From an uncultured Gemmatimonadales bacterium (GTDB lineage: Bacteria > Gemmatimonadota > Gemmatimonadetes > Longimicrobiales > RSA9): a DNA stretch of 64,000 nt. The stretch lies in NCBI GenBank assembly GCA_963708135.1, contig OY970192.1, positions 1,088,001 to 1,152,000 of the forward strand, written 5' to 3'. Positions 15,734 to 44,549 of the stretch are shown here, in pieces. The notes under the pieces are model-generated. The model was not told the DNA's origin and did no database searches. It saw nothing but the letters and a program-made list of their open reading frames with translations. How positions within the stretch are numbered: the stretch's first letter is position 1; each line of letters opens with the position of its first letter. The position numbers and the translations under genes are program-made.

Positions 15734-17671
15734 ATGGCGACAAGGCTTCAGGAAGAACCCGTCGCGCGAGAGCGTCGGGATGAGAAAGGGCGCGGCGCGC
15801 CAGGGCTGGAGCGGCGCGGCGAGCACACGGTCGAGATCGTCTCCGACTCGGGCGAAGGGGCGCAGAAGGCGGCGCAGATCTTCGGCGCGGTGTCGGCGAA
15901 GATGGGCAACGGCGTGTGGACCGTGGAGATCATCCCGGCGGAGATCCAGCCGCCGCCGCGGGAGCCTGCCGGGGCGAGCGGGAATCGGATCCGTCTCGGG
16001 TCGCGGGAGGTGACGAACTGGGGGGACGAGACGAACCTGGTCATCGCCTTCAACGAGCAGGTGCTGCTGAACCGGCACGAGCTCGGGGCGCTGGCGGAGG
16101 ACGCGGTGCTGCTGGTCGAGAACATGTGGGCGGCGCATCCGGACGAGGACATCCGGCGGCAGTGGCAGCGGGCGATGCGGCAGCTCGCGGGGCGCCGCTA
16201 CCGGGTGGTCGAGGTGCCGATGGAGGAGCAGTGCCTGACGGTCGTGGACAACGCGCGGAAGGGCAAGAACATGTTCGCGCTGGGGATCCTGTCCTGGATC
16301 TATGACCGCGACCTGGAGCTCGTGCGCGAGCAGATCGCCTACACGTTCCGGAAGAAGTCGCAGGAGGTCTACGACAAGAACGTCGCGCTCCTGGAGCTGG
16401 GGGTGCGCTGGGCGAGCGAGCACCTGGACTTCCGCATCGAGGTGCCGCCGACGCCGTCCACCACGCCGAAGGTGGTGATGAACGGCAACCAGGCGCTGGC
16501 GCTGGGCGGGATCGCGGCCGGGATGGAGCTGGCGGCGATGTACCCGATCACGCCGGCCACGTCGGTCTCGCACCACCTGGGCGAGGTGTTCGACTCGTAC
16601 GGCGGCGTGCTGCACCAGGCGGAGGACGAGATCGCGGCGATCGGCGTCGCGATCGGCGCCTCGTACGCGGGCAAGTGTGCCTTCACGATCACGTCGGGAC
16701 CGGGGCTCGCGCTGAAGACGGAGTTCCTCGGGCTCGCCACGATGATCGAGGTGCCGCTGGTGCTGGTGGACGTGCAGCGCGGCGGGCCGAGCACGGGGCT
16801 GCCCACGAAGGTCGAGCAGTCGGACCTGCTGGCGGTGCTGTACGGCCAGCCGGGCGACGCGCCGAAGGTGGTGCTCGCGCCGGCCACGATCGAGGAGTGC
16901 TTCCACGCGATGATCACGGCGCGGCGGATCGCCGATGCGTTCCGCACGCCGGTGATCGTGCTCTCCGATGCCAACCTCGCCACGGGCGTGCAGCCGTTCC
17001 CGCGGCCGAAGCCGGAGCCGCACTGGTTCGCGCCGCCCATGGACCAGAGTCCGGTGGCGGAGGGGAAGCGGCCGTACGACTGGGACGAGCGGACGGGGCT
17101 GGCGGAGCGCTTCATCCCGGGGCGGCCGGGCGGCATGCACACGCTGACCGGGCTCGTGCACGACGAGCGAGGCCGCGTCACCTACGACCAGCGGATGTAC
17201 CAGCACAGCTCGGACATGCGGGCGCGCAAGATCGCCGTGCTCCAGTCGATGCTGGAGCCGCCGGTCGTGAACGGCGATGAGGAAGGCGGCGACCTGCTGC
17301 TGGTGGGCTGGGGCAGCACGAAGGGCGCGATCGAGGAGGCGGTCGAGCGCGCGCGTGGCGAGGGGCTCTCGGTCTCCTCGACGCACCTGACCTTCCTCTC
17401 GCCGCTCCAGCCGGGGCTGAAGCAGATCTTCAGCCGGTTCCGCAAGGTGATGACGGTCGAGATCAACTACAGCGACGACCCGGCCGCGCCCTACGTGACC
17501 GAGGAGAACCGCCGGCGCGGGCAGCTGTCGATGCTGCTGCGCTCGGCCACCCTTGTGGACGTGGACTGCTGGACGCGCGTGCTCGGCGAGCCGCTGCGGC
17601 CCGGCGTGCTGGTCGAGGTGATCAAGAGCAACGTCAGTCGGGCGGGCGCCGCCCGGGGAGGTGCCGCGTGA
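15734..17671 (+). CDS. korA: 2-oxoacid:ferredoxin oxidoreductase alpha subunit
   Basis: SDSGEGAQ, YPITPA, QAEDEIAA, TSGPGLALK and QRGGPSTGLPTK motifs. Confidence 0.9.
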   Translation: MATRLQEEPVARERRDEKGRGAPGLERRGEHTVEIVSDSGEGAQKAAQIFGAVSAKMGNGVWTVEIIPAEIQPPPREPAGASGNRIRLGSREVTNWGDETNLVIAFNEQVLLNRHELGALAEDAVLLVENMWAAHPDEDIRRQWQRAMRQLAGRRYRVVEVPMEEQCLTVVDNARKGKNMFALGILSWIYDRDLELVREQIAYTFRKKSQEVYDKNVALLELGVRWASEHLDFRIEVPPTPSTTPKVVMNGNQALALGGIAAGMELAAMYPITPATSVSHHLGEVFDSYGGVLHQAEDEIAAIGVAIGASYAGKCAFTITSGPGLALKTEFLGLATMIEVPLVLVDVQRGGPSTGLPTKVEQSDLLAVLYGQPGDAPKVVLAPATIEECFHAMITARRIADAFRTPVIVLSDANLATGVQPFPRPKPEPHWFAPPMDQSPVAEGKRPYDWDERTGLAERFIPGRPGGMHTLTGLVHDERGRVTYDQRMYQHSSDMRARKIAVLQSMLEPPVVNGDEEGGDLLLVGWGSTKGAIEEAVERARGEGLSVSSTHLTFLSPLQPGLKQIFSRFRKVMTVEINYSDDPAAPYVTEENRRRGQLSMLLRSATLVDVDCWTRVLGEPLRPGVLVEVIKSNVSRAGAARGGAA

Positions 17672-18621
17672 GCTCCGCCTGCTCGCTCCTGGCCTTCGCG
17701 GCCGAGGACGACGACCGCGTCCTCGACCTTCACGACTACGAGGGCCCCGTGGCCCGCTGGTGCCCGGGGTGCGGGGACCACTCGGTGCTGACGGCCATGC
17801 AGAAGCTGCTCACGGCCGAGCAGCTGCTGCCCGAGACGACGGTCTTCGTGTCCGGGATCGGCTGCTCGAGCCGATTCCCGCACTACATGCACACCTACGG
17901 CTTCCACGGCATCCACGGGCGCGCGCTGCCGGTGGCCACGGGCGTCAAGCTCTCGCGCCCCGAACTGGACGTGTTCGTCGTCATGGGCGATGGCGATTGC
18001 ACCAGCATCGGCGCCGCGCACTGGCTGCACGCCATCCGCTACAACGTGGACATGACGGCGCTGCTGCTGGACAACAACATCTACGGGCTGACCAAGAAGC
18101 AGACCTCGCCCACCACGCCGCAGGGCTTCCCGAGCAACACGCAGCCGAAGGGCAGCTACCTGCCGCCGCTCAACCCGCTCGAGGCGACGCTGGGCGTGAC
18201 CAATGCCTCGTTCGTGGCGCAGACCGCCGAGTGGATCCCGTCGCACCTGTACGCGACGATCCGCGCGGCCTACCACCACAAGGGGTTCTCGTTCGTCCGC
18301 ATTCTCCAGCGCTGCCCGCAGTTCACCGACTCGCTGTTCAGGGAGGCGGTGCGGAAGCCGGCGCTCGTGGAGCTGCTCGTCCACGACGACGGCGTCATCG
18401 TGCCCGACCTGGACAGGGTCTACGAGAACCAGCTGCCGCACGACCCGAGCGACCTGGACGCGGCGAGGCGGCTGGCGGAGGCCTCCGATCGCATCCGGCT
18501 CGGCGTCTTCTACAGGAACGAGAGCCGGCCCCGCTACGACGAGATCCGCACCCTGCCGAGGCACACGGTGGAGGACAAGATCCGGATCATGAACGAGGAG
18601 CTCGACCGCTATGCCGTCTGA
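17668..18621 (+). CDS. korB: 2-oxoacid:ferredoxin oxidoreductase beta subunit (TPP-binding)
   Basis: WCPGCGD, SGIGCSSR, HGRALP, GDGD and NNIYGLTK motifs. Confidence 0.92.
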   Translation: MSSACSLLAFAAEDDDRVLDLHDYEGPVARWCPGCGDHSVLTAMQKLLTAEQLLPETTVFVSGIGCSSRFPHYMHTYGFHGIHGRALPVATGVKLSRPELDVFVVMGDGDCTSIGAAHWLHAIRYNVDMTALLLDNNIYGLTKKQTSPTTPQGFPSNTQPKGSYLPPLNPLEATLGVTNASFVAQTAEWIPSHLYATIRAAYHHKGFSFVRILQRCPQFTDSLFREAVRKPALVELLVHDDGVIVPDLDRVYENQLPHDPSDLDAARRLAEASDRIRLGVFYRNESRPRYDEIRTLPRHTVEDKIRIMNEELDRYAV

Positions 18622-19615
18622 CGATCGGAGCCAGCAGGCACTGCGCGCGGTGGACGGAGCGCGCCGGACGTTCCACTCCGCCGTCGCCGCGGCCGTCGAC
18701 GAGGTGGATGCCTTCCTCGACGCGCACGCGCTCCCGGCCGGCGACGGTGCCGGCCGGGCCGGCGCGGAGCTCGGTCCCTTCGCGGCGGGCCGCATCGACG
18801 CGGCGCGCTTCGGCGCGCTGTTCGGCGGCGGCGTGGCCCTCGAGCCGGTTGCGCTCGAGACGGTGCGCCGGGCGCGCGCGGTGCTGGACGAGATCGCGGC
18901 CGGCAAGGACTCGCTCTTCCTGGCCAGCGTGCCGTCCGGCGGCGACCTGGGCGCCACGGCCGTGGCCGCGCTCGGCCGCGCCGGCCGCGCGTTCGGCGCG
19001 GGCCACGTGGTCGAGCTGATCCGCTCCGGCCGCTACCGCGCGGAGGCGCACGACCACTTCCTCGAGGTCTACCCACCCGAGCTCTGGAACCGGGCCGAGC
19101 GCGAGGTGGCGCCGCCGCTGGTGGTCGAGGTGGACGGCTCGGACCTGCACGTATGCGCCCTGGCCGACCTGCTGCAGGGGCAGCAGAAGCTGGTGCTGGT
19201 GGTGCGCGGCTCCTGTCCGCCCGCGCCTCTGGTGCGGGCCATCACTCCGCGCGTGCTGGTGCTGCAGGTGACGGAGCCGGGTGGCCTGGCGTCGCTGGCC
19301 GCGAGCGACGGGCCGGGCGTGGCGGCGCTGGTGCCGGAGGGCGCCGCGCGGTTCGCCCACGCCCCGCAGGCCGGCGCCTGTCTGGCGGACCGGCTCCAGG
19401 TGGCCAGCCTGCCGGAGCCGCCGCGCACGCCGCTCGCGCGCTACACGGTCTTCCAGCAGGCGGAGGAGCTCGCGCAGCTCGCCGCGCTCGCGACGGAGGC
19501 GGTGCGGCCGGCGGACGCTGCGGCTCCGGCCGCTGCCGAGGGTGGCGAGTTCACGACGGCGGACAAGCTGGCCGCGTGGCTGCTCCGGCACGCCAACCTT
19601 CCGGACCCGGCCTGA
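18611..19615 (+). CDS. Hypothetical protein in the oxidoreductase/Rnf operon
   Basis: 334 aa ORF with host codon use; overlaps korB and ends 13 bp before rnfB. Confidence 0.75.
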   Translation: MPSDDRSQQALRAVDGARRTFHSAVAAAVDEVDAFLDAHALPAGDGAGRAGAELGPFAAGRIDAARFGALFGGGVALEPVALETVRRARAVLDEIAAGKDSLFLASVPSGGDLGATAVAALGRAGRAFGAGHVVELIRSGRYRAEAHDHFLEVYPPELWNRAEREVAPPLVVEVDGSDLHVCALADLLQGQQKLVLVVRGSCPPAPLVRAITPRVLVLQVTEPGGLASLAASDGPGVAALVPEGAARFAHAPQAGACLADRLQVASLPEPPRTPLARYTVFQQAEELAQLAALATEAVRPADAAAPAAAEGGEFTTADKLAAWLLRHANLPDPA

Positions 19616-19628: not shown

Positions 19629-20471
19629 ATGGGCGTGATCCTCGGCTCGGTCGCGATCCTGGGCGGCGTGGGGGTGATCTTCGGGATCCTCATCGCGCTC
19701 GCCAACAAGAAGCTGCGCGTGTGGGAGGACCCGCGCGTGGACGGCGTGGCCGATCTGCTGCCCAACAACAACTGCGGTGCCTGCGGCTTCGCGGGCTGCC
19801 GCGCGTTCGCGGAGGCGGTGGTCCGCGGCGAGACGGCGCCGGCGCAGTGCACGGTCATGAACGACGACCAGCGCGGCGACGTGGCCGCCTACCTGGGCGT
19901 CGATGCGGGCCAGGCGACGAAGCGGGTCGCGCGGCTGCTGTGCGCGGGCGGCGACGACGTCGCCATCCGGAAGGCGGAGTACCGCGGCATCGAGAGCTGC
20001 GCCGCCGCGGTGGCGGTGACGGGCGGCGGCAAGGGGTGCGCCTGGGGGTGCGTCGGCTATGCCGACTGCGCCGTGGCGTGCGACTTCGACGCCATCCTCA
20101 TGAGCGACACCGGGCTGCCGGTGGTGGACGTCGAGAAGTGCACCGCCTGCGGCGACTGCGTCGATGCATGCCCGCTGGACCTCTTCACCATCCTGCCGCT
20201 GGACGCCCACCTGCTGGTGCAGTGCAGGAGCCTGCTGGAGGGCGAGGCGGCCACGGACGTGTGCAGCGTCGCGTGCAACGCGTGCGGCCGCTGCGCCGCG
20301 GACGCGCCCGGGCTGATCACGATGCGGCGCGGCCTGGCCGTGATCGACTACGACCGCATCGAGCTGCAGAGCAGAAAGGCCATAGGGCGCTGCCCGACCG
20401 GCGCCATCGCGTGGGTCGAGGGCGCGCAATTCACCATGCAGCTTCCCGCGTCAGGGAGCGGAGTGTCATGA
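19629..20471 (+). CDS. rnfB: Rnf electron transport complex subunit B
   Basis: N-terminal membrane anchor, LPNNNCGACGFAGC and several CxxCxxCxxxCP motifs. Confidence 0.9.
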   Translation: MGVILGSVAILGGVGVIFGILIALANKKLRVWEDPRVDGVADLLPNNNCGACGFAGCRAFAEAVVRGETAPAQCTVMNDDQRGDVAAYLGVDAGQATKRVARLLCAGGDDVAIRKAEYRGIESCAAAVAVTGGGKGCAWGCVGYADCAVACDFDAILMSDTGLPVVDVEKCTACGDCVDACPLDLFTILPLDAHLLVQCRSLLEGEAATDVCSVACNACGRCAADAPGLITMRRGLAVIDYDRIELQSRKAIGRCPTGAIAWVEGAQFTMQLPASGSGVS

Positions 20472-23400
20472 GCAGCCGCAAGCAGGCGGAGCCGGAGCGC
20501 CCCGGACCGAAGTACCCGGGGCAGCCGGAGGCGATGGACGGCAGCGCGGCCGTCGTCGAGATGGAGACCGCGGCCAGCGAGGCGGCGGGCGCCTACCCGA
20601 TCACACCCTCGACACAGATGGGCGAGGGCTGGGCGCTGGCCGTGGCGGGCGGCAAGACCAACGTGAACGGCCGCCGGCTGCTCTTCTTCGAGCCGGAGGG
20701 CGAGCACGCGGCGGCGGCGGTCACGGCCGGGATGAGCATGGTCGGGCTGCGGGCCACCAACTTCTCGAGCGGGCAGGGCATCGCCTACATGCACGAGTCG
20801 CTCTACGCGGCCGTCGGCAAGCGCCTGACCTACGTGCTGAACGTGGCCGCGCGCGCCATGACCAAGCACGCGCTCAACGTGCACGCCGGCCACGACGACT
20901 ACCACGCCGTGGACGACACCGGCTTCTTCCAGCTGTTCGCCAAGGACGTGCAGGAGGCGGCCGACCTGAACCTGATCGCGCACCGCGTGGCCGAGCTGGC
21001 GCTGAACCCGGGGCTCGTGGCGCAGGACGGCTTCCTCACCAGCCACGTGATCGAGTCGATCCGGCTGCCCGAGCGCGCGCTGATCAAGGAGTACCTGGGC
21101 GACCCCGCGGACATGGTGGAGTCCCCGACGCCCGCGCAGCGCCTGGTGTTCGGCGAGACGCGCCGGCGCATCCCGGAGATGTTCGATCTGGACTACCCGT
21201 CCATGATCGGCGTCGTGCAGAACCAGGACGCCTACGCGCAGGGCGTGGCCGCCCAGCGGCCCTTCTACTTCGACCACGTGGCCGAGCTCACCGACCGCGC
21301 CATGCGCGAGTACGCCGAGCTCACCGGCCGCACCTACGCCCGCGCCACCGGCTACCGCATGCAGGACGCCGAGTGGGTCATCTGCGGCCAGGGCTCCGTG
21401 GTGCCCAACGCCGAGGCCGTGGCCGACTGGCTGCGCGAGAACCGCGGCCTCAGGGTCGGCGTGCTCAACCTCACCATGTTCCGCCCGTTCCCGGCCGACC
21501 TGGTCACGCACCTGCTGCGTGGCAAGAAGGGCGTCACCGTCCTCGAGCGCGTGGACCAGCCGCTGGCCGTCGATCCGCCGCTGCTGCGCGAGATCCGCGC
21601 GGCCATGACGCAAGCGCTCGAGAACGGCCGCGCCGTCGCCGCGAACGGTAACCGCGCGGCGGGGCGAGCCACCACGAGCGGGCATTCCGGCATGGCGTTC
21701 GGATGGGGACGGGGCCGCGCCGAAGCGGCCACGAACGGCGACGCCGCCGCCCCACCGATGCCGTACCCGAAGCTCGCCGCCGCCCTTCCCGACGAGTTGC
21801 CGGACTTCTTCTCCGGCGGCTTCGGCTTCGGCAGCCGCGACCTGCAGCCAGGCGACATCGTTGCGGCCGTGGAGAACATGGTGCCGCAGGCGCAAGCGCA
21901 AGGGCAAGCGCAAGCGCAAGCGCACGCGCAAGCGCACGCGCGAGCGCACGCCCAAAACCAAAACCAAAACCAAAACCAAAACCCGGAGCGGCGCGGGGCC
22001 GGGCGGAGGCAGCGCCAGTTCTACCTCGGGATCGACTTCATCCGCAAGGGCACGAAGCTGCCCAAGCTGCAGCTGTGGCAGGAGCAGCTGCTGGAGGGCT
22101 ACCCGCACCTGGCGGAGCTGGCGCTCGAGTCGGCAGGCGACCTCAACCTGCACCCGGAGGGCTCCGTCTCGCTGCGCATCCACTCGGTGGGCGGCTGGGG
22201 CGCGATCACGACCGGGAAGAACCTGGCGCTCACGGCGTACGAGCTGGCCGGGCTCAACATCAAGGCCAACCCGAAGTACGGCTCGGAAAAGAAGGGACAG
22301 CCGACCACCTTCTACGCCACGCTCTCGCACCAGTCCCTCAGGATCAACGCGGAGCTGAAGCACGTCGATGTGGTACTGAGCCCGGACCCGAACGTGTTCC
22401 GCCACTCCAACCCGCTGGCGGGGCTGGCCGAGGGCGGCGTGTTCGTGATCCAGAGCGACCAGACGCCGGAGCAGGTGTGGGCGTCACTGCCGGCCACGGC
22501 GCAGGTGGACATCATCGAGAAGAAGCTGGCCGTCTACGCGCTGGACGGCTTCAGCATCGCGGGGGAGGAGGCCTCGGATCCCGAGCTCCGCTACCGCATG
22601 CAGGGCGCCGCCTTCATGGGCGCCTTCTTCGCCGCCTCGCCGCTGGCGGCGCGCGAGGGGCTGGACGAGGCCCGGCTGTTCGAGGGGATCGAGGCGCAGC
22701 TCGAGAAAAAGTTCGGCAAGCTGGGCAAGCGCGTGGTGGACGACAACCTGCGCGTGATCCGGCGCGGCTACGAGGAGATGCGGAAGGTGCCGGTCGGGGC
22801 GGTGAGCGACGAGGTGTCCTCCGCGCTGGCCACGGCGAACGTGCCGGCGCTCATGGACGTGATCGGCGCGGCCGAGGGGCCGGGCAACCCGGGCCGCTTC
22901 TGGGAGCAGGTCTGCTCGATCTACGCCAGCGGCGGCGACGGCATCGCGGACCCGTTCGCGGCGATCAGCGCGGTTCCGGCGGCCAGCAGCACGTTCCGCG
23001 ACATGACCAACATCCGCTTCGAGGTGCCCGAGTTCATCGCCTCGAAGTGCACGGGCTGCGCGCAGTGCTGGACGCAGTGCCCCGACGCGGCGATCCCGGG
23101 GCTGGTCAACACGCCGGAGGAGATCCTGGACGCGGCGATCCGGACGGCGCAGAACGGCCGCTCCTTCGACCGGTTGCGCCAGGTCTCGAAGCACATCGCG
23201 AAGGAAGCGAACAAGGTGATGCAGGGCGTGCCCTTCACCACCTTCGGCGACGTGCTCTCCGCCGCCTACCAGAACGTGGCCGGGAAGCTCGGCTGGGAGG
23301 CCGACCGGCGCGCCGAGCTGGACGAGGAGTTCGCCGCCGTGTTCCCGCGCATCGCCGAGCTGCCGCTGGCGAAGACGGCGCCGTTCTTCGACGTGCCGGA

Positions 23401-27284: not shown

Positions 27285-27310
27285 GACACCCTGTGTCAAC
27301 CCCCCTGTGT

Positions 27311-28558: not shown

Positions 28559-28594
28559 GCCTCACCTCCGAGCAGAGATTCACTCCCTCGCTCC

Positions 28595-28800: not shown

Positions 28801-28815
28801 GGGTAAGGTGCACCA

Positions 28816-31779: not shown

Positions 31780-31928
31780 TCGCCTCGATCGTGGGCATCG
31801 CCCTGCTCGCCGCCCTCTTCGCCGTCTTCGGGCTCATCCGCCACAAGCCGGACTGCGCGTCCGGCGCCTGCGGCGCCTGCCCCGCAACCTCGTGCGCACT
31901 GAAGGAGTCCGACCATGACCATGCCTGA
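31776..31928 (+). CDS. Small membrane protein with Cys-rich tail
   Basis: ATGA overlap with rnfA; one TM helix, then CASGACGACPATSC. Confidence 0.65.
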   Translation: MIASIVGIALLAALFAVFGLIRHKPDCASGACGACPATSCALKESDHDHA

Positions 31929-35515: not shown

Positions 35516-35528
35516 TGCCACACCCTCC

Positions 35529-35585
35529 TTGACTTCTACCAACGTATGACACAATACTTACGAGCGTACGCCACATGACACAATA
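35529..35585 (+). promoter_or_regulatory. Putative paaX promoter with two 11-bp direct repeats (candidate operator)
   Basis: TTGACT (35529-34) and AATACT (35553-58); ATGACACAATA at 35546-56 and 35575-85. Confidence 0.5.
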
Positions 35586-36496: not shown

Positions 36497-37597
36497 ATGC
36501 GTCAGTTCGAGTCGAAGCCCGCGGAGTCCTTCGAGCTCCGCGAGGTGCTGTACCGGAAGTCCGACTGGGTCGCGACGGTCACGATCGACCGTCCCCATGC
36601 CTACAACGCCTACTCGACGGCGGCGCTCGTCGAGCTCGCCACGGTGCTCCGCGACGCCGCGTTCGACGACTCGATCGGGGTGATCGTGCTGACCGGCGCG
36701 GGCGATCGCGCCTTCTGCACGGGCGGCGACGTGAAGGAGTACGAGGAGGTCTACACCTCCTATCCGCGCGACTACTGGAAGTACATGGGCCTGTTCCGGG
36801 CCTACATCGAGGCGATCGTGAACGCCGGCAAGCCGGTGATCGCGCGCCTGAACGGGATGGCGGCGGGCGGCGGCAACGAGAGCCAGCTCGCGTGTGACCT
36901 GTCCGTGATCGCCGAGCACGCCTGGATCGGGCAGGTCGGCACGCGCGTCGGCAGCGTGGCGGCCGGCGGCTCGACGCAGTGGCTGCCGATCACCGTGGGC
37001 GACCGCCGGGCCAGGGAGATCCTGCTGCTGAACGAGCGGATCCCCGCCTACCAGGCGCTCGAGTGGGGGCTGGTCAACCGCGTGGCGCCCTCGGTCGTGA
37101 AGGACGGCGCCTTCGTCACGCGCGCCACGCCCGAGCAGATCAAGGATGCCCAGGCCGGCCGGAACGGCTACTCGATCTCCCTCGAGAAGCTCAATGAGGA
37201 GGTCGCGAAGCTCGCCGGCCGGCTGCTCGAGCAGTTCCCCGAGTGCACCCGCTACACCAAGCAGCAGGTGAACTTCTGGAAGGAGCTCGCCTGGCACCAG
37301 ACGATCGGCCACGCGCGCGACTGGCTCTCCGTCCACTACACGGCCCGCGAGCCGTGGGAGGGGATGCGCGCGTTCGTCGAGAAGCGCCCCGCCGGCTACA
37401 TGGAGCAGCGCCGCCTGGCGGCGGCGGGCGCCTCCAGCGAGTTCGTCTGGGGCCCGAACGAGCGCGAGTGCCCGGCGTGCGGCGCGGTGGGTCTGCCTGC
37501 CGGCTTCGCCTGGTGCGGCGCCTGCGGCCAGGCCCTGGCGGACGCGGTGGCGGCGGGGAACGGCGTGGCGGCTTCGGCGCCGGCGGAGGCGCGATGA
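36497..37597 (+). CDS. oah: 6-oxocyclohex-1-ene-1-carbonyl-CoA hydrolase (Oah/BamA-like)
   Basis: Crotonase fold with YNAYST, AFCTGGDVKEY, GGGNE, FPECTRYTK and RDWL; adjacent to BCR genes. Confidence 0.82.
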   Translation: MRQFESKPAESFELREVLYRKSDWVATVTIDRPHAYNAYSTAALVELATVLRDAAFDDSIGVIVLTGAGDRAFCTGGDVKEYEEVYTSYPRDYWKYMGLFRAYIEAIVNAGKPVIARLNGMAAGGGNESQLACDLSVIAEHAWIGQVGTRVGSVAAGGSTQWLPITVGDRRAREILLLNERIPAYQALEWGLVNRVAPSVVKDGAFVTRATPEQIKDAQAGRNGYSISLEKLNEEVAKLAGRLLEQFPECTRYTKQQVNFWKELAWHQTIGHARDWLSVHYTAREPWEGMRAFVEKRPAGYMEQRRLAAAGASSEFVWGPNERECPACGAVGLPAGFAWCGACGQALADAVAAGNGVAASAPAEAR

Positions 37598-38376
37598 GCG
37601 ACGCCTCGGCCGCCGCGACGTCCGCGGTGCGCGTGGAGCGGCGCGGCGGCGTCGCCTGGCTCGTGATGGACCGTCCGCCGCTCAACGTCCTCGACATCGC
37701 GATGATGCGCGAGCTCGGCGCGGCGCTGGACGCGCTCGCCGGCGCGCCGCCGAGGGTGGTCGTCCTGACCGGCGCCGGCCGCGCCTTCTGCGCGGGCGTG
37801 GACGTGGCGGACCACACGGAGTCCCGGGTGGCGGAGATGCTGGCGGCGTTCCACGGCGTGCTCGGGAGGCTCCTGCACATGGGAGCGCCGGTGGTCGCGG
37901 CGGTGAACGGCGCGGCGCTGGGCGGCGGCTGCGAGCTCGTCCAGGCCTGCGACATCGTCCTCGCCCGCGCCGGCGCGAAGCTCGGACAGCCGGAGATCGG
38001 GCTGGGCGTCTTCCCGCCCGCGGCGGCGGCGCTGCTGCCGCGGCGCATCGGCGTGCAGGCTGCGCTGGACCTGGTGCTGACGGGGCGGGTGGTCGAGGCG
38101 GAGGAGGCGCGCGCGCTCGGTCTCGTCGCGCGGGTGCTGCCGGCGGATGGCTTCGAGGCGGAGGTGGCGGCGTACGCGGGGAAGCTCGCGGGGCTGAGCG
38201 CGCCGGTGGTGCGGCTGGCCAAGCGCGCGGTCATGGATGGACTGGAGCGCCCGGCGGCGGAGGCGCTGGCGCGGGCGGAGACCCTGTATCTGGACGAGCT
38301 GATGCGGCTCGGGGACGCGGCCGAGGGGCTGGCGGCGTTCCTGGAGAAGCGGGCGCCCGTCTGGAAGGATGCGTGA
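37594..38376 (+). CDS. dch: Cyclohexa-1,5-dienecarbonyl-CoA hydratase (Dch-like)
   Basis: [32 protein letters not shown] and ETLYLDELM motifs; gene context. Confidence 0.8.
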
Positions 38377-38380
38377 GGCG

Positions 38381-39595
38381 ATGAGCACGGCAGCGATGAC
38401 GCCGACGCGGGCGCCGGCGCCCCGTCCGGAGGGTCCGTTCCTGGAGATCGCGCGGGGCGCCGGGCTGGACGCTATCCTGGCCGCCTGCCGCGAGCTGGTG
38501 GAGGACACGGATTTCCCCACGGTGCGCCGCTGGCGGGAGGCGGGCGGCCGCGCCGTGGGCCATTTCCAGGTCTACTTCCCGGAGGAGCTCGCGCACGCCG
38601 CGGGGCTGCTCCCCGTGAAGGTGCGCGGGGCGCCGGTCGAGCGCGAGCGGGCGGACTCGCACTTCGGCTCCTACCTCTGCTCGATCCTGCGCAGCTCGCT
38701 CGAGCTGGCGCTTTCCGGCCGGCTGGAGCTGGACCTTTTCGTGACCCACCCGATCTGCGACGCCGCCCGCAACCTCGCCGGCGTGTGGGGCCGCAACGTG
38801 CCGGCCGCGCCCGCGCAGATCCTCTACCTGCCGCAGAACCCGAACTCGGCCTTCAGCGCCACCTACCTGCGCGCCGAGTACGCCCGCGTGCTGGCGGACA
38901 TCGAGGCGGTGGCGGGGCGTAGCGTGACGGTGGACGACCTGCGTCACTCGATCGGCGTGTTCGACGAGAACCGGCGGCTGCTGCGCGAGCTGTACGCGGT
39001 GAAGCGCGAGACGCCGTGGCTGCTGTCCGTGGACGAGGCGTACGTGCTCATGGCCGTGGGCGGGCTCATCCCGCGCGAGGAGCACAACGCGCTGCTCGCC
39101 ACGGCGCTGCCGCTCGCGCGCGCCCGGCAGGCGCGGCGCCAGGACAAGATCCGGGTGGTCTTCGAGGGCGGCTTCTGCGAGCAGCCGCCGCTCGACCTGC
39201 TGCGCGCCATCGCGCAGTTCTGCTACGTGGTCGATGACGACCTGCTCATCGGGCTGCGCTGGATCGAGGAGGACGTCGGCACGGCCGGCGACCCGCTCGC
39301 GGCGCTGGCCAATGCCTACCTGAACCGCTCCTCCTACAGCCCCGTGCAGCACGATCTGCGCAAGCCGAAGGAGAAGATGCTGCTCGAGCGCATCCGCGGC
39401 GCGGAGGCGAGCGCCGCGATCATCGCCGCGGCCAAGATGTGCGAGCCGGGGCTGGACGAGCAGGTGGCGTACTCGAAGGCGCTGGACGGGGCAGGGGTGC
39501 CGTACTTCGTCACCGAGTTCGAGGAGCGGATGACGGGGTTCGACCATCTCCAGATCCAGCTCGAGACATTCGTGGAGAACATCCTCTTCGACTAG
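38381..39595 (+). CDS. bcrC: Class I benzoyl-CoA reductase catalytic subunit (BcrC/BzdN-like)
   Basis: [38 protein letters not shown] and KMCEPGL motifs. Confidence 0.82.
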
Positions 39596-39669: not shown

Positions 39670-41067
39670 ATGCCGATGGTGGCCGAGAGAGAGCTGCTGG
39701 GACGCGGCGCCCACGAGGGGCGGCGCCTGTTCCGGGAGTGGTTCGACAGCCTGACGGGCGCGGCCGAGCGCGGCGAGCCGACGGCCTACGTGTTCGTCAT
39801 GGGCAGCATGGTCGAGGTGCTGCGCGCCTTCGACTTCCACGTCGTCTTCCCGGAGATCAACTCCTTGCAGACGGCCGTGCGGCGCACGGCGGACGAGCTG
39901 CTCGGCTTCGCCGAGGACTACGGCTACTCGCCCGACGTGTGCGGCTACGTGAAGGCGGACGTGGCCGTCCAGCTCCAGAACGGGCGCCACCCAATGGGCA
40001 CGATCCCCCGCCCGACGCTCGCCGTCCTCACCAACGCCTGCAACACCTACATGAAATGGGCGGAGATCTGGGAGCGGCTGCACGGCACCCCCGTCGTCAC
40101 GATCGACGTGCCGGTCTCGCGCAGCGCCGCCGCCGCCGGTGCGCCCGCGGCCGCCGACCTCGCCCGCGACCGCGCGTACGTGGACGCGCAGGTGCGCGAG
40201 CTCATCGCCACCTGCGAGCGCACGACCGGCAGGCGCCTGGACATGGACCGGCTGCGCCAGGTGATGGAGTGGACGAACCGGATGACGCGCGCGTGGGTCC
40301 GGCTGCTCGAGCTGAACGCCGCCCGCCCCGCGCCCTTCGACGCGCTCGTCGAGGGCACCGTCTACCTGGGCGTGGCCAACGCGCTGCGCGGCACCGAGGA
40401 GGGCGCCCGCTACTTCGAGGACCTGGTCGAGGAGATCGAGTACAAGGTCGCCCACGGCATCGGCGCGCTCCCCGACGAGCGGCACCGCCTCATCTTCGTG
40501 GGCGTGCCCTGCTACCCGATCTTCCGCCGCTTCTTCGAGCTCTTCGCGGACTGGGGCGGCGCCTTCGTCGGCTCGACCTACCTCTGGTTCGCCGCGGGCG
40601 GCATGAACCTCGGCTACGAGTACGACCTCGACCACCCGCTCGAGAGCCTGGCCGAGGGGCTCGTCCGGAGCATCCGCACGGCCACGGACGCCATGATGTT
40701 CCACGACGACGCCCTGATCGACGCCATCGACCGCCTCGGCGCCGACGGCGTGGTCTACCACCCGGTCAAGAGCTGCCGCACCGTCTCCACGGGGCTCGCC
40801 GACAGCCGGCGCGCCGTCATGGCCAGCCGGGACGTGATGTCGCTCTACATCGAGAGCGACATGATGGACAAGCGCGTGGTCTCCGAGGCGCAGCTGAAGA
40901 ACCGGATCGACGCCTTCTTCGAGGGCCTCGACAGCCGCCAGCTGCGCCAGGCGACGGAGGCCGACGCCGCCGCCACCGCCCGTGCCGCGTCCGCGGCGGC
41001 CGAAGGCGTGACGGCCGCCGCGGCGGCGGAGTCCGGCGAGGGCCGCGCCTGCAGCGCGAACCCCTGA
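39670..41067 (+). CDS. bcrB: Class I benzoyl-CoA reductase catalytic subunit (BcrB/BzdO-like)
   Basis: [35 protein letters not shown] and [11 protein letters not shown] motifs. Confidence 0.82.
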
Positions 41068-41098
41068 CCCCTGGTCCCCAGCACCTCGCGAGGTTCAG

Positions 41099-41914
41099 AT
41101 GCTCTATGCAGCGGGAGTGGACGTCGGCTCCACCCAGACCAAGGCGGTCATCGTGGACGAGGCCGGGCGACTGGCGGGGAAGAGCCTGATCGGCACCGGC
41201 GCGAACGTCGTCACGGCCGCCGAGAAGGCCTTCGACCTCGCGCTCGACGACGGCCTCGTGCGGCGCGCCGACGTCGGCTTCGTCATCGGCACCGGCTACG
41301 GCCGCTACAAGGTCGAGTTCGGCGATGCGCAGGTGACCGAGATCCTGTGCCACGCGCGCGGCGCCTCGCACATGTTCCCCGGCACGCTGACCGTGCTCGA
41401 CATGGGCGGGCAGGACACCAAGGCCATCCGTATCCGCCCCGGCGGCGAGGTGGCCGACTTCTGCATGAACGACAAGTGCGCCGCCGGTACGGGCCGCTTC
41501 CTCCAGTCCGCCGCCGCCGCGCTGGACATTCCGCTCGACGAACTCGGCCCCACCGCCCTGCGCGCGCAGCGCCCCGTCGAGATCAGCACGACGTGCACGG
41601 TCTTCGCCGAGTCCGAGGTCCTCTCCTGGCTCGCCCGCGGCAAGAAGATCGAGGACATCCTGGCCGGCGTGCACCACTCGATCGCGCAGCGCTCGATCGC
41701 GCTGCTGCGCCGCGTCGGCATCGAGGCGGAGCTCACCTTCACCGGCGGCGTGACCCGCAACGAGGCCATGGTCGCCGTGCTCCAGGAGCTGCTCGGACTG
41801 CGCCTCAACGTGAGCCCCGAAGCCCACTTCATGGGCGCGCTCGGCGGCGCGCTCTTCGCCCTCGACCGCGTGGCCGCCGGCCAGCCGGCCGTGGCCGGAG
41901 GAGGTGCCGCATGA
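41099..41914 (+). CDS. BcrA/BcrD/HgdC family ATP-dependent activase subunit
   Basis: [36 protein letters not shown] and CTVFAESE motifs. Confidence 0.88.
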
Positions 41915-42735
41915 GGTACACGGCCGGAATCGACGTCGGCTCGACCTACACCAAGGCCGCCATCGTCTCGGGCGACGGCCGCCTGGCCGGCACCGCGCTC
42001 ACCGAGACCGGGTTCCGCCTCGAGGAGGCCGCCTCGCGCGCCCTCGACGGCGCGCTCGCCCAGGCCGGCATCCGCCGCGAGGAGCTCGCCTACATCGCCA
42101 GCACCGGCTACGGCCGCTACATGGTCCCCTGGCGCGACACCCAGGTCACGGACCTCACCGCCCACGCCCGCGGCGCCCGCTTCTTCTTCCCGGGCACGCG
42201 CACCGTCCTCGACATCGGCGGCCAGACCATGAAGGCGCTGCGCATCGACGACCGCGCCCGCGTGCAGTCCTTCCGCCTGAACGACAAGTGCGCCGCCGGC
42301 ACCGGCGCCTTCCTGGAGAAGACCGCCCGCTACCTCGGCTACCGGATCGAGGAGATCGGCCCGCTCGTGGCCACCTCCCACGAGGCCGTCGAGATCTCCG
42401 GCGTGTGCGCCGTCTTCGCCGAGTCGGAGGTCATCAACCAGATCAGCGCCGGCGCCACGGCCGCCGACATCATGCACGGCGCCATGCGCTCGCTCGTGAA
42501 GCGCGCCGTCCAGCTCATGCGGCGCGTGCAGATGGAGCCGGAGATCGCGCTCGTCGGGGGCATCATCCGATTCCCCACCATGGTCGCCGTCCTGCGCGAG
42601 AGCCTGGGCGAGGGGCTGAACGTGGCGCAGGGGCCGCTGCCCCAGTTCACCGGCGCCCTCGGCGCCGCCGTCCTCGCCCGCCGCCGCCTCGAGAAGCTCG
42701 AGCGCCAGGAGGCCGCCGGTGGCGTTCCCGCCTGA
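41911..42735 (+). CDS. Second BcrA/BcrD/HgdC family activase subunit
   Basis: [35 protein letters not shown] and CAVFAESE motifs. Confidence 0.88.
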
Positions 42736-43051
42736 GGCCGCCGCTTCCGGCGCCGCCGCGCCGCCCCGCGCGGACGAGGTCTCCGCGCACCCGGGGACGC
42801 CCGCCGCGCCCGCCCCGGAGCTCGGCCCGGAGGACCCGCTCGCCCGGGACGCCGCGCTCGAGGCCCTCGGGTGGGAGCGCCGCTTCACGGAGGGGGCGGC
42901 GCGCCTGCGCGAGAGCGTCGCCCTCTACGAGTCGCTCGGCTGGGAGGTACGCACCGAGCCGCTTGCCGCCGCCGAGCTCGCCGACGAGTGCCACGACTGC
43001 ACGCTGGCGCTCGCCCTCTTCCGGATCCTCTACGTCAGGAGGCGCGCGTGA
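42719..43051 (+). CDS. Small hypothetical protein with CxxC
   Basis: [25 protein letters not shown]; overlaps both neighbours. The start is uncertain. Confidence 0.7.
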
Positions 43052-44067
43052 GAGCCGCCGTGTTCCACGGCGCGGGCAAGCCGCTCGCCGTCGAGGAGCT
43101 GCCTACTCCCGAGCCCGGTCCGGGCGAGGTGCGCGTGAGGGTCGCCGCGTGCGGCGTCTGCCACACCGACCTGCACTACACCGACCACGGCACGCGCACC
43201 TTCAAGGAGCCGCCGCTGGTGCTCGGCCACGAGGTGTCCGGCACGCTGGACGCCCTGGGCGCGGACGTGCGCGGCTGGTCGGAGGGCGCCCGCGTCCTGC
43301 TCCCCGCCGTCCTGACCTGCGGCCACTGCGCCGCCTGCCGCGCGGGGCGCGAGAACATCTGCGAGAACGGCGTCATGCTGGGCAACCACATCGACGGCGG
43401 CTTCGCGGAATACATCGTGGTCCCGGCCAAGGACCTGATCCCGCTGCCGGAGGAGATCCCGCTGGTGGAGGGCGCGATCATCGCCGACGCGCTGACCACC
43501 CCGTACCACGCGGTGGTGAACCGCGGCCGGGTTCGCCCCGGAGACCGCGTGCTCGTCGTCGGCTGCGGCGGCATCGGGTTGAACCTCGTGCAGATGGCCG
43601 CCGCCGTGGGCGCGCGCGTCCTCGCCGTGGACGTGAGCCCCGAGAAGCTCGAGTGGGCCCGCCGCTTCGGCGCCGAGACGATCGACGGTGCCGCGACGCC
43701 GCGCATCGACCGGGACGTGCGCGCCCGGACGGATGGCGGCGCCGACGTCGCCTTCGAGGCCGTCGGCCGCGCCGCCACCCAGGAGCAGGCCTTCGCCTCG
43801 CTCCGTACCGGCGGCCGCCTCGTCTGCGTCGGCTACAGCCCCGAGACCCTGCCGCTGAACGCCGGCCGCGTCATGTTCCGCGAGATGGAGGTGGTCGGCT
43901 CGCTCGGCTGCCGGCCCGGCGACTACCCGCGCGTCATCGAGCTCGTGCGCCAGGGCCGGCTCCGCCTGAGCGAGCTCGTCACCGCCCGCTTCCCGCTGGG
44001 CCGCATTGCCGATGCCCTCGACACGCTGCGCGCCGGCAACGGCATCCGCTCCGTCGTCGTGCCGTGA
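43048..44067 (+). CDS. had: Zn-dependent alcohol dehydrogenase, probable 6-hydroxycyclohex-1-ene-1-carbonyl-CoA dehydrogenase
   Basis: [17 protein letters not shown], CxxCxxC...C, ADALTTPY and GCGGIG motifs; gene context. Confidence 0.8.
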
Positions 44068-44111
44068 CCGGCGCCGCCCCGGGCGGCTCGCCCCCGAACC
44101 CTGGAGTCGCC

Positions 44112-44549
44112 GTGCGGATCATCGATTCGCTCCTCGCCGAGCACGGTCTGCTCTACGCTCAGCTCGACCACCTCGAGGCGACGGTTCCCGGCGCCGACCT
44201 GCCCTCGCTGCGTGCCACGGCCGCGCTCCTGGCCGCCGCGCTCCGGGTCCACGCCGAGGCCGAGGACGAGCTCCTCTTCGCCGCCGTCCGCGACGCCACC
44301 GGCGGGCTCCCCGGCCCGCTCTCCGCCATGCACGACGACCACGACGAGATCGCCGAGGCGCTGGACGAGGTCGCCGCCGCCGACTCCGTCGAGCGCGCCA
44401 GACAGCTGCTCCTGTGGACGCTGCGCCACGCCCGCGACCACTTCGCCCGCGAGGAGCACGCCGCGTTCCCTATGGCCGAGGAGGCACTCGACCGCGTCAC
44501 GCTCGAGCGGCTCGGCGCCGAGCTGGCCCGACGCCGCGGCCTGGCCTAG
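44112..44549 (+). CDS. Hemerythrin-like (HHE) domain protein
   Basis: EH, HAEAEDELLF, DDHDEI and HFAREEHAAFP motifs. Confidence 0.8.
   Translation: MRIIDSLLAEHGLLYAQLDHLEATVPGADLPSLRATAALLAAALRVHAEAEDELLFAAVRDATGGLPGPLSAMHDDHDEIAEALDEVAAADSVERARQLLLWTLRHARDHFAREEHAAFPMAEEALDRVTLERLGAELARRRGLA

Follow-up and report, generated by a model that had tools for sequence, protein, structure and literature searches.

The locus analysed here, a window of 64,000 nucleotides from a member of the Gemmatimonadota, places genes for 2-oxoacid:ferredoxin oxidoreductases and an Rnf complex near genes for a benzoyl-CoA reductase (BCR), and raises the question of whether the former constitute a dedicated electron supply for the latter. 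An earlier sequence-only reading had proposed such a unit, and had named the placement of the contig as one check, which gives Gemmatimonadota as the lineage. Based on sequence comparisons, we consider it probable (about 0.6) that the region is made up of two distinct neighbouring units, a conserved kor-PFOR-rnf operon (15734-32961) and a benzoyl-CoA cluster (35595-44549). Using Pfam, NCBIfam and start codons, the gene order of the first was resolved as follows.

15734..17671, plus strand: korA, fused gamma and alpha, the alpha subunit of a two-subunit 2-oxoacid:ferredoxin oxidoreductase
17668..18621, plus strand: korB, TPP/[4Fe-4S] beta subunit, overlapping korA by 4 nt
18611..19615, plus strand: orfX, 334 aa, starting within the end of korB (11-nt overlap)
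19629..20471, plus strand: rnfB, long multi-cluster type with 20 Cys (Pfam FeS and Fer4)
20468..25816, plus strand: giant PFOR, 1782 aa, ATGA overlap with rnfB
25827..27284, plus strand: rnfC, NAD(H)/FMN subunit (TIGR01945, 522.6 > 245.95)
27286..28816, minus strand: IS110-family insertion sequence of ~1.5 kb, boundaries approximate, from junction sequences
27311-28558, minus strand: IS110 transposase gene (Pfam DEDD_Tnp_IS110 and Transposase_20; NF033542, 204.7 > 140)
28559-28816, minus strand: structured non-coding end of the IS110 element (RNA fold z-score -2.95)
28816..29829, plus strand: rnfD, GTG start at the IS junction (TIGR01946, 317 > 207)
29826..30524, plus strand: rnfG, FMN-binding (Pfam FMN_bind; TIGR01947, 99.7 against a cutoff of 102)
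30521..31204, plus strand: rnfE (TIGR01948, 240.2 > 213.4)
31201..31779, plus strand: rnfA (TIGR01943, 233.2 > 229.3)
31776..31928, plus strand: small Cys protein, 50 aa, with a single transmembrane helix and clustered Cys residues
31915..32961, plus strand: apbE, FAD:protein FMN transferase (Pfam ApbE, 236.7 bits), last gene of the conserved operon

This inventory bears out the presence and tight packing of the Kor, PFOR and Rnf genes reported previously, including an rnfB that stands apart from the other rnf genes and overlaps the PFOR-like gene (rnfB ends at 20471, PFOR starts at 20468). The packing does not extend across rnfC and rnfD, where a 1531-nt gap is filled by the overlooked minus-strand IS110 transposase gene and its non-coding end. 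The packing goes beyond chance, as dozens of independent genomes share this order of genes.

With RnfC as the query, 443 relatives were confirmed, and the best 80 loci were retained; these are labelled Gemmatimonadota (64), other phyla (13) or 'uncultured bacterium' (3). Most are thus from Gemmatimonadota MAGs, and five other phyla appear among the remaining labels. Where upstream sequence of at least 9.8 kb was available (43 loci), the korA to PFOR genes lie immediately upstream of rnfC in 39 cases; where the sequence beyond rnfC reached at least 4.5 kb (54 loci), rnfDGEA is present in every one and apbE in 44. Pairwise adjacency was complete for korA-korB (42/42), korB-orfX (44/44), orfX-rnfB (45/45), rnfB-PFOR (50/50), rnfC-rnfD (77/77), rnfD-G (70/70), rnfG-E (66/66), rnfE-A (63/63) and rnfA-apbE (47/47). 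PFOR-rnfC adjacency, for which the criterion was 450 nt, was found at 69 of 76 loci; the seven failures comprise gaps of ~0.5 kb in L003 and L050, attributed to tblastn matches ending early, and five separations of 5-10 kb, regarded as true. These adjacencies support the proposal of a single functional unit made up of kor, the PFOR-like gene, rnfB and rnfCDGEA-apbE. No further gene of the window outside the operon was syntenic with the relatives. The Kor/giant-PFOR/Rnf block, of ~12 genes, is therefore an operon of the housekeeping type that is conserved widely within Gemmatimonadota.

The part of greatest interest is the giant PFOR of ~1700 aa encoded between rnfB and rnfC. It aligns with the Moorella thermoacetica enzyme across domains I-III, V and VI. 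Its domains follow the order I-II-III-V-VI seen in the single-polypeptide PFORs of M. thermoacetica (6cin) and Desulfovibrio africanus (1b0p), with which it also shares the TPP motif and the motifs for all three Fe-S clusters. In 37 homologues, both CxxCxxCxxxCP motifs, the proximal-cluster Cys residues, the GDG...N TPP motif and a C-terminal CxxCxxC...CP motif are invariant. However, it is considerably larger than these enzymes (~1700-1780 aa against ~1170-1230 aa), with conserved inserts at ~887-982 and ~1088-1180 and a C-terminal extension of ~360 aa, and it scores 386 against the TIGR02176 pyruvate:ferredoxin oxidoreductase equivalog, far below the cutoff of 911. The extension combines an alpha/beta domain and a long helix with a disordered linker and a single-cluster, ferredoxin-I-like domain; the latter is 76-81% conserved behind the variable linker. 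AF2 modelling assigned pLDDT <50 to the linker (residues 224-285 of the modelled piece) and 74-90 to the terminal domain, whose model superposes on D. africanus ferredoxin I with a TM of 0.82 and an rmsd of 1.1 A over 58 columns (probability 1.00).

All six Rnf subunits are encoded and five of them pass the NCBIfam rnf subfamily models (RnfB, TIGR01944, 75.4 > 68.7), with RnfG, which carries a TGAT motif at residue 199, falling marginally below. RnfB belongs with the long form known from Acetobacterium woodii and Clostridium tetanomorphum; its best solved relatives are 9eri_B (193 bits) and 7zc6_B (171 bits), against 61 bits to the short Azotobacter type. The complexes of these two organisms (gene order rnfB...CDGEA) likewise have six subunits with ApbE alongside, whereas here rnfB and rnfC flank a PFOR gene of 5.3 kb, rnfB is preceded by korAB and an unknown gene, the gene for a small Cys-rich membrane protein separates rnfA from apbE, and rnfC is split from rnfD by IS110. 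The small Cys protein has no significant Pfam match (FeoB_associated at E 0.35); a regular expression flags a counterpart in the rnfA-apbE interval of 37 of 47 loci, of which ~32 were judged genuine. In the main text of a 2025 review of RNF/NQR pumps, 'PFOR', '2-oxoglutarate' and 'Gemmatimonad' do not occur and 'pyruvate' occurs twice.

KorA has Pfam POR and POR_N domains and exceeds the TIGR03710 cutoff (524 bits > 482.75); its best solved relative is 6n2n (278 bits), taken here as the 2-oxoglutarate enzyme from an organism with the reverse TCA cycle. KorB has TPP_enzyme_C and PFO_beta_C domains and falls slightly below the TIGR02177 cutoff (239 bits against 261.9). The orfX product (~335 aa) is conserved but falls into no known family: it has no Pfam or NCBIfam match, its homologues number 605 cluster representatives at E<=1e-3 (320-457 aa and mostly ~335 aa among those listed), and its AF2 model (pLDDT 88.8) matches no PDB fold significantly.

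Taken together, we read the operon as a general ion-pumping module running from 2-oxoacids via ferredoxin and Rnf to NAD+, rather than as a BCR-specific supply. KorAB and the giant PFOR would decarboxylate their substrates, most likely 2-oxoglutarate and pyruvate respectively, and reduce ferredoxin. The single-cluster ferredoxin domain of PFOR, held on a disordered linker of ~60 residues, could deliver electrons to RnfB by docking on it; Rnf would then pass them to NAD+ at RnfC and export Na+ or H+, with ApbE predicted to flavinylate RnfG and RnfD. A physical oxidoreductase-Rnf supercomplex, as suggested previously, is conceivable, and the tethered ferredoxin domain adds to the appeal of this idea.

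The region downstream of apbE contains the following genes.

33361..34761, minus strand: nhaD, Na+/H+ antiporter (NF038006, 508 > 80), outside the conserved operon
35054..35554, minus strand: maoC, MaoC-like (R)-hydratase (Pfam MaoC_dehydratas)
35595..36437, plus strand: PaaX-family regulator (Pfam PaaX, PaaX_M and PaaX_C; TIGR02277, 249 < 264.55), at the start of the BCR cluster
36497..37597, plus strand: oah-like ring-opening hydrolase of the ECH family, 366 aa (best NCBIfam match TIGR03200 dearomat_oah, 193.8 < 464)
37594..38376, plus strand: dch-like dienoyl-CoA hydratase (TIGR03189, 177.4 < 292.5, third among the ECH matches)
38369..39595, plus strand: BCR gamma subunit, MbdN-like (Pfam HGD-D; 9g87_B MbdN, 535 bits)
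39670..41067, plus strand: BCR beta subunit, MbdO-like (Pfam HGD-D; 9g87_A MbdO, 498 bits)
41099..41914, plus strand: BCR alpha ATPase subunit, MbdQ-like (Pfam BcrAD_BadFG; 9gai_D MbdQ, 391 bits)
41911..42735, plus strand: BCR delta ATPase subunit, MbdP-like (Pfam BcrAD_BadFG; 9gai_C MbdP, 288 bits)
42988..44067, plus strand: had-like Zn-dependent dehydrogenase (best NCBIfam match TIGR03201 dearomat_had, 256.5 < 338.65; alternative start 42871)
44112..44549, plus strand: hemerythrin-domain protein (Pfam Hemerythrin, E 1.6e-12 in this frame)

An 881-aa ORF (41904-44549), at whose end the region named in the sequence-only reading also stops, spans the fourth BCR subunit, had and the hemerythrin gene in different frames, and was rejected as a single gene by GC3 frame analysis and Pfam. 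The four subunits score 288-535 bits against MbdN/O/Q/P and ~100 bits against BzdNO, and each has the corresponding subunit of the 3-methylbenzoyl-CoA reductase MbdONQP (PDB 9g87/9gai) as its best solved match. By these similarities the enzyme is a class I BCR, as had been stated, of the MBR type and not the BcrABCD type of Thauera. The accompanying oah-, dch- and had-like genes also resemble the MbdONQP system. That system belongs to Betaproteobacteria, whereas the host here is a member of the Gemmatimonadota, and the present cluster differs from it in its PaaX-like regulator, in the hemerythrin gene at its end, and in having neither a ferredoxin gene of its own nor a CoA ligase gene within the 64-kb window. 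In Thauera aromatica, the bcr cluster goes with ferredoxin and KorAB as the electron supply. The present locus is similar in encoding a two-subunit KorAB-type enzyme near a class I BCR; however, its KorAB is part of another operon, one conserved with or without BCR, there is no dedicated ferredoxin gene, and the BCR is of a different type.

These observations bear on whether KorAB and PFOR, possibly together with a reverse-running Rnf whose ion gradient is balanced by NhaD, exist to supply ferredoxin to the ATP-dependent BCR. The two clusters are adjacent in this genome, and class I BCR requires reduced ferredoxin (PMC11971306). A kor gene belonging to the BCR cluster itself is likewise absent from the window; this, together with the missing ferredoxin gene, fits the idea that the cluster borrows neighbouring genes. 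A PFOR homologue (P0046) and a BcrB homologue (P0214) come from the same source, both listing a longest contig of 40407 bp, so at least one relative may carry PFOR and BCR within 40 kb, on the basis of the coincidence of that figure alone. Against this, no paaX, oah, dch or bcr match was found beyond the operon in any relative, whether at least 3 kb of sequence was available there (0 of 47) or at least 5 kb (0 of 39), in flanks extending 5-7 kb past apbE, such that a more distant BCR cluster would be missed. Furthermore, HGD-D, BcrAD_BadFG and ECH domains were absent from all 74 downstream ORFs of 20 relatives, which are heterogeneous in content, and nhaD follows the operon in just one relative of 47 (L019). 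Although nhaD and the BCR cluster do follow the operon, as reported, maoC and the PaaX-, oah- and dch-like genes intervene before the BCR subunits. Between the end of apbE (32961) and the start of paaX (35595) lie the two minus-strand genes nhaD and maoC and a promoter-like site (35529-35558), indicating separate units; the genes from paaX through oah, dch, the MBR-type BCR (gamma-beta-alpha-delta) and had to hemerythrin are thus predicted to be transcribed separately. The rnf operon is also cut by IS110 in this same genome. We therefore regard a dedicated supply as very unlikely. The operon is usually unlinked from BCR in relatives, the survey outcome that the sequence-only reading had itself set against its proposal, and among the loci compared it lies beside an MBR-type BCR cluster only in this genome, making the adjacency a feature of the genome and not of the operon. 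BCR may well take its electrons from the pool of ferredoxin reduced by KorAB and PFOR, without the operon having been built for it.

A further possibility is that the module runs in the opposite direction, with a gradient from respiration driving Rnf to reduce ferredoxin from NADH, and KorAB and PFOR acting as 2-oxoglutarate and pyruvate synthases in CO2 assimilation or anaplerosis. 2-Oxoacid:ferredoxin oxidoreductases are generally reversible, and the presumed reverse-TCA origin of 6n2n, the closest solved relative of KorA, is in keeping with this direction. Rnf operates in reverse in aerobic Azotobacter (PMC12174285). However, no other reverse-TCA marker, such as a citrate-cleaving enzyme, was detected either in the window or among the relatives' 74 downstream ORFs, and the long RnfB, closer to the ferredoxin-oxidising Rnf of anaerobes than to that of Azotobacter, weakly favours the forward direction. 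We thus consider reverse operation unlikely, and retain the general module as the preferred reading.

Whether the Rnf part still works in this genome may depend on the IS110 element, which sits exactly at the junction of the rnfC stop and the rnfD start. An insertion at this position occurs in none of the 77 related loci with both rnfC and rnfD. This opposite-strand element of 1.5 kb has replaced the rnfD ATG, which overlaps the rnfC stop in L019, with GTG, and has moved the original ribosome-binding site of rnfD 1.5 kb away; it thus probably weakens or uncouples expression of rnfDGEA-apbE. Were it fully polar, only KorAB, the orfX product, RnfB, PFOR and RnfC would be left, in a module that is decaying or rewired. 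This outcome is conceivable, albeit not the one we favour, as the downstream rnf genes are all intact, full-length and of normal GC3, so that the insertion is either recent or tolerated. In addition, a purine-rich stretch precedes the new rnfD GTG, and an outward or internal promoter is conceivable. The element also has two guide-like matches, I5 and D17.

At a G+C content of ~72%, any raw list of ORFs from the window contains many spurious frames, and genes were called by combining third-position GC and start-codon context with Pfam and NCBIfam matches. An 881-aa ORF at 41904-44549 was rejected as a single gene by its third-position GC frames and Pfam content.

Features of the Kor-PFOR-Rnf operon and the genes that follow it (window position, strand, description)
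15734-17671, plus, korA
17668-18621, plus, korB
18611-19615, plus, orfX, 334 aa, no family
19629-20471, plus, rnfB
20468-25816, plus, giant PFOR, 1782 aa
25827-27284, plus, rnfC
27286-28816, minus, IS110-family element, with its transposase gene at 27311-28558 (NF033542, 204.7 bits, cutoff 140)
28816-29829, plus, rnfD
29826-30524, plus, rnfG
30521-31204, plus, rnfE
31201-31779, plus, rnfA
31776-31928, plus, small transmembrane/Cys-rich ORF, 50 aa
31915-32961, plus, apbE (Pfam ApbE, 236.7 bits)
Downstream of the operon, minus, nhaD (NF038006, 508 bits)
After nhaD, minus, MaoC-like gene
Then, plus, PaaX-family regulator gene followed by oah-like and dch-like crotonase genes
After dch, plus, two HGD-D genes, two BcrAD_BadFG ATPase genes, a had-like Zn-dehydrogenase gene and a hemerythrin gene

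As the sequence-only reading had described, the operon is tightly packed, with most adjoining genes overlapping by 4-14 nt or lying 10-13 nt apart, and the rnfB stop shares an ATGA with the PFOR start. The exception is a gap of 1531 nt between rnfC and rnfD; here the sequence-only reading had overlooked the IS110 transposase gene.

An RnfC search with one genome per species returned 443 confirmed relatives, of which the best 80 loci were analysed (top RnfC identity 82%, the window's own genome not being included). By the submitters' own phylum labels, which may be wrong for metagenome-assembled genomes, these comprise 64 Gemmatimonadota (one confirmed by a taxonomy check), 4 Planctomycetota, 4 Rokubacteria, 2 'Deltaproteobacteria', 3 'uncultured bacterium', and one each of Myxococcaceae, Acidobacteria and Acidimicrobiia. 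The window itself is placed in Gemmatimonadota, and to no finer rank. Using tblastn of 25 window proteins, and counting only loci that hold both genes of a pair, adjacency was found for korA-korB in 42/42, korB-orfX in 44/44, orfX-rnfB in 45/45, rnfB-PFOR in 50/50, PFOR-rnfC in 69/76, rnfC-rnfD in 77/77, rnfD-rnfG in 70/70, rnfG-rnfE in 66/66, rnfE-rnfA in 63/63 and rnfA-apbE in 47/47 loci. This pairwise adjacency across related loci bears out the proposal that Kor, PFOR and Rnf form one unit. Where at least 4.5 kb lies downstream, rnfD, G, E and A are present in 54/54 loci and apbE in 44/54. The rnfA-apbE interval was flagged for a small ORF with a hydrophobic helix and a Cys cluster in 37/47 loci, five of which were judged on inspection to be other frames, leaving ~32; the window's own copy has no significant Pfam match (FeoB_associated at E 0.35).

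In 39 of the 43 loci whose sequence extends 9.8 kb or more upstream of rnfC, the block from korA to PFOR immediately precedes this gene. Three of the four exceptions (related loci L007, L008 and L016) carry 7.6-9.8 kb of other genes between PFOR and rnfC, and in the fourth, L019, the match is a second rnf cluster. With L004, the former three make up a set of four Gemmatimonadota loci in which 5.5-9.8 kb of other genes (mostly opposite-strand in L007) separate the PFOR end from rnfC, and the operon can thus be split at this point. L019 (positions 1-16800) holds two tandem rnf clusters, PFOR-rnfCDGEA-apbE and then rnfB-rnfCDGEA-apbE-nhaD (nhaD on the minus strand) without PFOR; the second is nearer to the window (RnfB 82%, RnfC 78% vs 70%), and L019 is the only related locus with nhaD. 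In another locus, L002, a nitrous-oxide-reductase-like gene (16726-18948; nos_propeller and cupredoxin) lies ~1.4 kb downstream of apbE.

The rnfC and rnfD genes overlap at stop and ATG (ATGA) in relative L019 and lie 68 nt apart in L001. In the window, rnfC ends '...cccgcATGAgacaccc', rnfD begins at GTG in '...caccaGTGagcgag', and TGAG is found on both sides of the IS110 element; these junction sequences place the element at the rnfC-stop/rnfD-start and indicate that rnfD was displaced from its ribosome-binding site. The rnf genes downstream of the element are intact, and an insertion at this junction was found in 0/77 relatives. Bridge-RNA-guided IS110 transposition is the mechanism expected to leave guide-like matches in a leader. 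The 258-nt leader upstream of the transposase matches the left junction at 16/18 positions and the other IS end at 10/10, folds better than 200/200 shuffles (z -2.95), and matched no family in Rfam. It looks like a bridge RNA with guides still matching the occupied site, and the element has both features of the IS110 family, a DEDD transposase and a structured non-coding end in which segments match the target and the donor.

The operon encodes the full set of six Rnf subunits (A, B, C, D, E and G), and five of the six NCBIfam models were passed (scores/cutoffs: rnfC 522.6/245.95, rnfD 317/207, rnfE 240.2/213.4, rnfA 233.2/229.3, rnfB 75.4/68.7), with rnfG ~2 bits short (99.7, cutoff 102). With its 20 Cys, RnfB most resembles the long form from A. 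woodii (9eri_B, 193 bits) and from C. tetanomorphum (7zc6_B, 171 bits), whereas it scores 61 bits against the short form from A. vinelandii. RnfG carries the flavinylation motif, TGAT, at residue 199, and ApbE is encoded in the operon; the motif [ST]G[AS]T was not found in RnfD. KorA exceeds the alpha-subunit cutoff (TIGR03710, 524 > 482.75) and KorB falls slightly below that of the beta subunit (TIGR02177, 239.2, cutoff 261.9), which places the pair in the two-subunit alpha/beta family. The predicted specificity for 2-oxoglutarate is taken solely from the best solved relative of KorA, 6n2n.

The giant PFOR aligns over its core with M. thermoacetica PFOR (6cin, 292 bits) across domains I-III, V and VI (residues 21-396 to 4-359, 552-887 to 400-712, 982-1088 to 727-822 and 1270-1424 to 959-1108), and has extra sequence relative to 6cin at 397-551, ~887-982, ~1088-1180 and 1424-1782. 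Both CxxCxxCxxxCP motifs (C861/864/867/871 and C997/1000/1003/1007) are invariant in 37 homologues, as are C1075/1078/1186/1390, the TPP motif GDG...N with G1277-D1278-G1279, and a C-terminal CxxCxxC...CP (C1711, C1714, C1717 and C1753); we assign these Cys residues to particular Fe-S clusters by analogy. In its domain order, its TPP motif and its three [4Fe-4S] motifs, the protein corresponds to a single-chain PFOR. Since the curated equivalog cutoff is not reached (TIGR02176, 386.1 vs 911.35), we call the protein PFOR-like, in membership and in its probable mechanism. At least 120 homologues are listed (1672-1743 aa, 65-74% identity), and wherever a source is named the label is Gemmatimonadota, Longimicrobiales or Longimicrobiaceae. 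The greater length of the window protein comes from low-complexity inserts at residues 391-420 and 481-510 (window 21638-21727 and 21908-21997), Gly/Ala-rich and then QAQAQ...NQNQNQ, which lie in the domain II-III linker and are missing in 77-97% of 30 homologues.

A 31-sequence alignment shows conservation of the inserts at ~887-982 and ~1088-1180 and of residues 1424-1620, then a variable region rich in Ala, Gly and Pro at 1640-1700, and 76-81% identity over residues 1705-1782. The last 369 residues, modelled with AF2 from 19 sequences (mean pLDDT 68), comprise an alpha/beta domain, a ~50-residue helix, a 62-residue segment with pLDDT <50 and a terminal domain with pLDDT 74-90. Searched against the PDB, this model gave no match at E<=0.001; its best match, local to the terminal domain, was Desulfovibrio africanus ferredoxin I (1fxr; probability 1.00, E 1.7e-3), with other single-cluster ferredoxins next. 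The terminal domain superposes on 1fxr with a target-normalised TM of 0.82 and an rmsd of 1.1 A over 58 columns, and on this model the giant PFOR is therefore predicted to carry a covalently tethered ferredoxin.

The sole operon part outside known families is orfX. It has no Cys motif and no Pfam or NCBIfam family, 37 aligned orthologues giving scattered chance matches alone at E<=1, and nothing with E <0.4 was found among PDB sequences; the ESM Atlas was uninformative (scores 0.76-0.78). Searched with an orfX profile, 1.84 billion cluster representatives gave 605 matches at E<=1e-3, of which 327 reach E<=1e-30, and the 150 matches listed (320-457 aa, mostly ~335 aa) nearly all align end to end, which indicates a stand-alone protein and not a domain of a larger one. 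The AF2 model is confident (pLDDT 88.8, pTM 0.80) and had no Foldseek match in the PDB at E<=1e-3; its top fold matches are weak (E 0.03-0.1, TM ~0.2) and offer a lead only, being to PFOR, to the beta subunit of oxalate oxidoreductase and to further TPP enzymes. The orfX start overlaps the korB end in the window and, by tblastn coordinates, in most relatives likewise, which suggests translational coupling to KorB; our guess is that orfX is an adaptor or accessory subunit.

The adjoining benzoyl-CoA reductase (BCR) cluster contains two HGD-D catalytic subunits and two different BcrAD_BadFG ATPase subunits as judged by Pfam. Every subunit is nearest among solved proteins to the corresponding subunit of 3-methylbenzoyl-CoA reductase (MBR), namely gamma to MbdN (535 bits), beta to MbdO (498 bits), alpha to MbdQ (391 bits) and delta to MbdP (288 bits); 2-hydroxyacyl-CoA dehydratases, their activators or BzdNO come next among solved proteins (99-219 bits). 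Thauera-type equivalog cutoffs are missed (benz_CoA_red_C 277/421, B 199/487, A 210/578, D 143/313), and the bzd models (Azoarcus BzdNOPQ) score below these and also miss their cutoffs. This pattern fits the division of class I BCR into three types (BCR, MBR and BZD) given in PMC11971306. The equivalogs of the lower pathway are missed as well (oah 193.8/464, dch 177.4/292.5, had 256.5/338.65); the oah and had models are the best matches of their respective genes and the dch model is third-best. From gene context, the oah-, dch- and had-like genes are likely to be functional counterparts of the benzoyl-CoA lower pathway. Besides the window's own BcrB, at least 119 homologues are listed (66-76% identity), the named ones among them being Gemmatimonadota/Longimicrobiales and Chloroflexi/Anaerolineae. 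Class I BCRs of the MBR type are common among metagenomic proteins labelled Gemmatimonadota or Chloroflexota, and with so many homologues listed the gene is not rare in the metagenomic record of this lineage. In the open-access literature no paper on BCR with Gemmatimonadota in its title was found. A hemerythrin-domain gene (44112-44549) directly follows had at the cluster end and may have an oxygen-sensing or -scavenging role beside an oxygen-sensitive enzyme.

The sequence-only reading proposed the Kor, PFOR, Rnf and NhaD genes as a candidate self-contained electron supply to this BCR, and named as its refutation beforehand an operon usually unlinked from BCR genes in relatives, which is what the synteny survey found in their flanks. 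The paaX, oah, dch and four BCR subunit genes had no tblastn match at E<=1e-8 in the 80 loci, whose flanks are short, reaching at least 3 kb past the last operon gene in 47 and at least 5 kb in 39; the window's own oah begins 3.5 kb past apbE, and its first BCR subunit gene 5.4 kb past it. Pfam detected no HGD-D, BcrAD_BadFG or ECH domain in 74 downstream ORFs from 20 relatives, and these ORFs are mixed, encoding nitrous-oxide reductase, metallo-beta-lactamase-fold proteins, RNA polymerase, H+-pyrophosphatase and others. The nhaD gene lies downstream of the operon in 1/47 loci (L019), and none of 26 further proteins encoded in the window outside the operon had a syntenic match in the 80 loci, where they gave only four weak matches of paralogue type. 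Within the window, two minus-strand genes stand between operon and BCR cluster, and the only two sigma-70-like sites in 27000-38500 include one immediately before paaX, in a scan that may not suit the phylum. Counting against a lack of linkage, no ferredoxin, kor or CoA-ligase gene belonging to the BCR cluster was found in the 64-kb window. Overall, the operon as BCR electron supply is largely refuted, a caution against taking the gene neighbourhood of one genome for a pathway.

Two pairs of homologues bear on the neighbourhood in close relatives. PFOR homologue P0046 and BcrB homologue P0214 come from the same source and both list a longest contig of 40407 bp, and one relative may therefore share the operon-BCR linkage. 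The closest PFOR homologue (P0004, 74%) and the closest NhaD homologue (P0395, 75%), again from a single source, both list a 22484-bp contig. These shared listings hint that close relatives share parts of the window neighbourhood.

Composition, order, conservation, cofactor motifs, the ferredoxin fold, BCR type, the IS insertion and the lack of conserved linkage are directly supported. For function, we propose that KorAB and the giant PFOR would oxidise 2-oxoglutarate and pyruvate, that electrons would pass to RnfB via the tethered or a free ferredoxin, and that Rnf would reduce NAD+ and pump ions. Such a module would serve central metabolism, and the adjoining BCR would draw at most on the common reduced-ferredoxin pool. 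As far as gene content can indicate, electrons may also flow in reverse, with NADH reducing ferredoxin to supply 2-oxoacid synthesis or BCR. An extension of the proposed 2-oxoacid oxidation by Kor, PFOR and Rnf, to which we give perhaps three chances in ten, is a membrane-anchored 2-oxoacid:NAD+ oxidoreductase supercomplex, in which RnfB would be the docking site of the giant PFOR and, by way of orfX, of KorAB, and the tethered ferredoxin would swing between the PFOR distal cluster and RnfB. If this were true, the oxidation of pyruvate and of 2-oxoglutarate would drive ion pumping directly, with no need of free ferredoxin, and the supercomplex would be an energy-conserving counterpart to the dehydrogenase complexes for these two 2-oxoacids, spread widely through Gemmatimonadota and further soil phyla.

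The energy metabolism of Gemmatimonadota, which are abundant in soil, is little studied, and the operon would alter models of their low-oxygen physiology. Two 2-oxoacid:ferredoxin oxidoreductases joined to Rnf suggest that these bacteria gain additional ion-motive force by oxidising central carbon compounds, or can run the route backwards, and a natural PFOR-ferredoxin fusion would be on offer for enzymology. What is new is the arrangement and the predicted ferredoxin-tethered PFOR: no description of the operon was found in the open-access literature, and 'PFOR', '2-oxoglutarate' and 'Gemmatimonad' are absent from the main text of a 2025 RNF/NQR review.

Upstream of korA, the minus strand at 7765-15008 encodes a 728-aa FAD-linked oxidase and LutA/B/C-like lactate-utilisation proteins (CCG, LutB_C and LUD domains), which would make pyruvate beside the PFOR operon. 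Between the LutB/LutC-like genes and a DinB/DUF5996 region, a low-GC islet (10200-12000; 0.61 vs ~0.73) holds small minus-strand ORFs only (171, 120, 83 and 98 aa), of which one looks secreted and one is Cys-rich, and may be foreign DNA. The sole RNA gene detected in the window, tRNA-Ser (anticodon TGA, 55567-55649), overlaps a minus-strand Uma2-domain ORF call, the upstream part of which is thus probably spurious. At 3848-5059, a bacterial archaeo-eukaryotic release-factor-like domain protein (baeRF family 10) adjoins a 1057-aa Ser/Thr kinase with TPR repeats.
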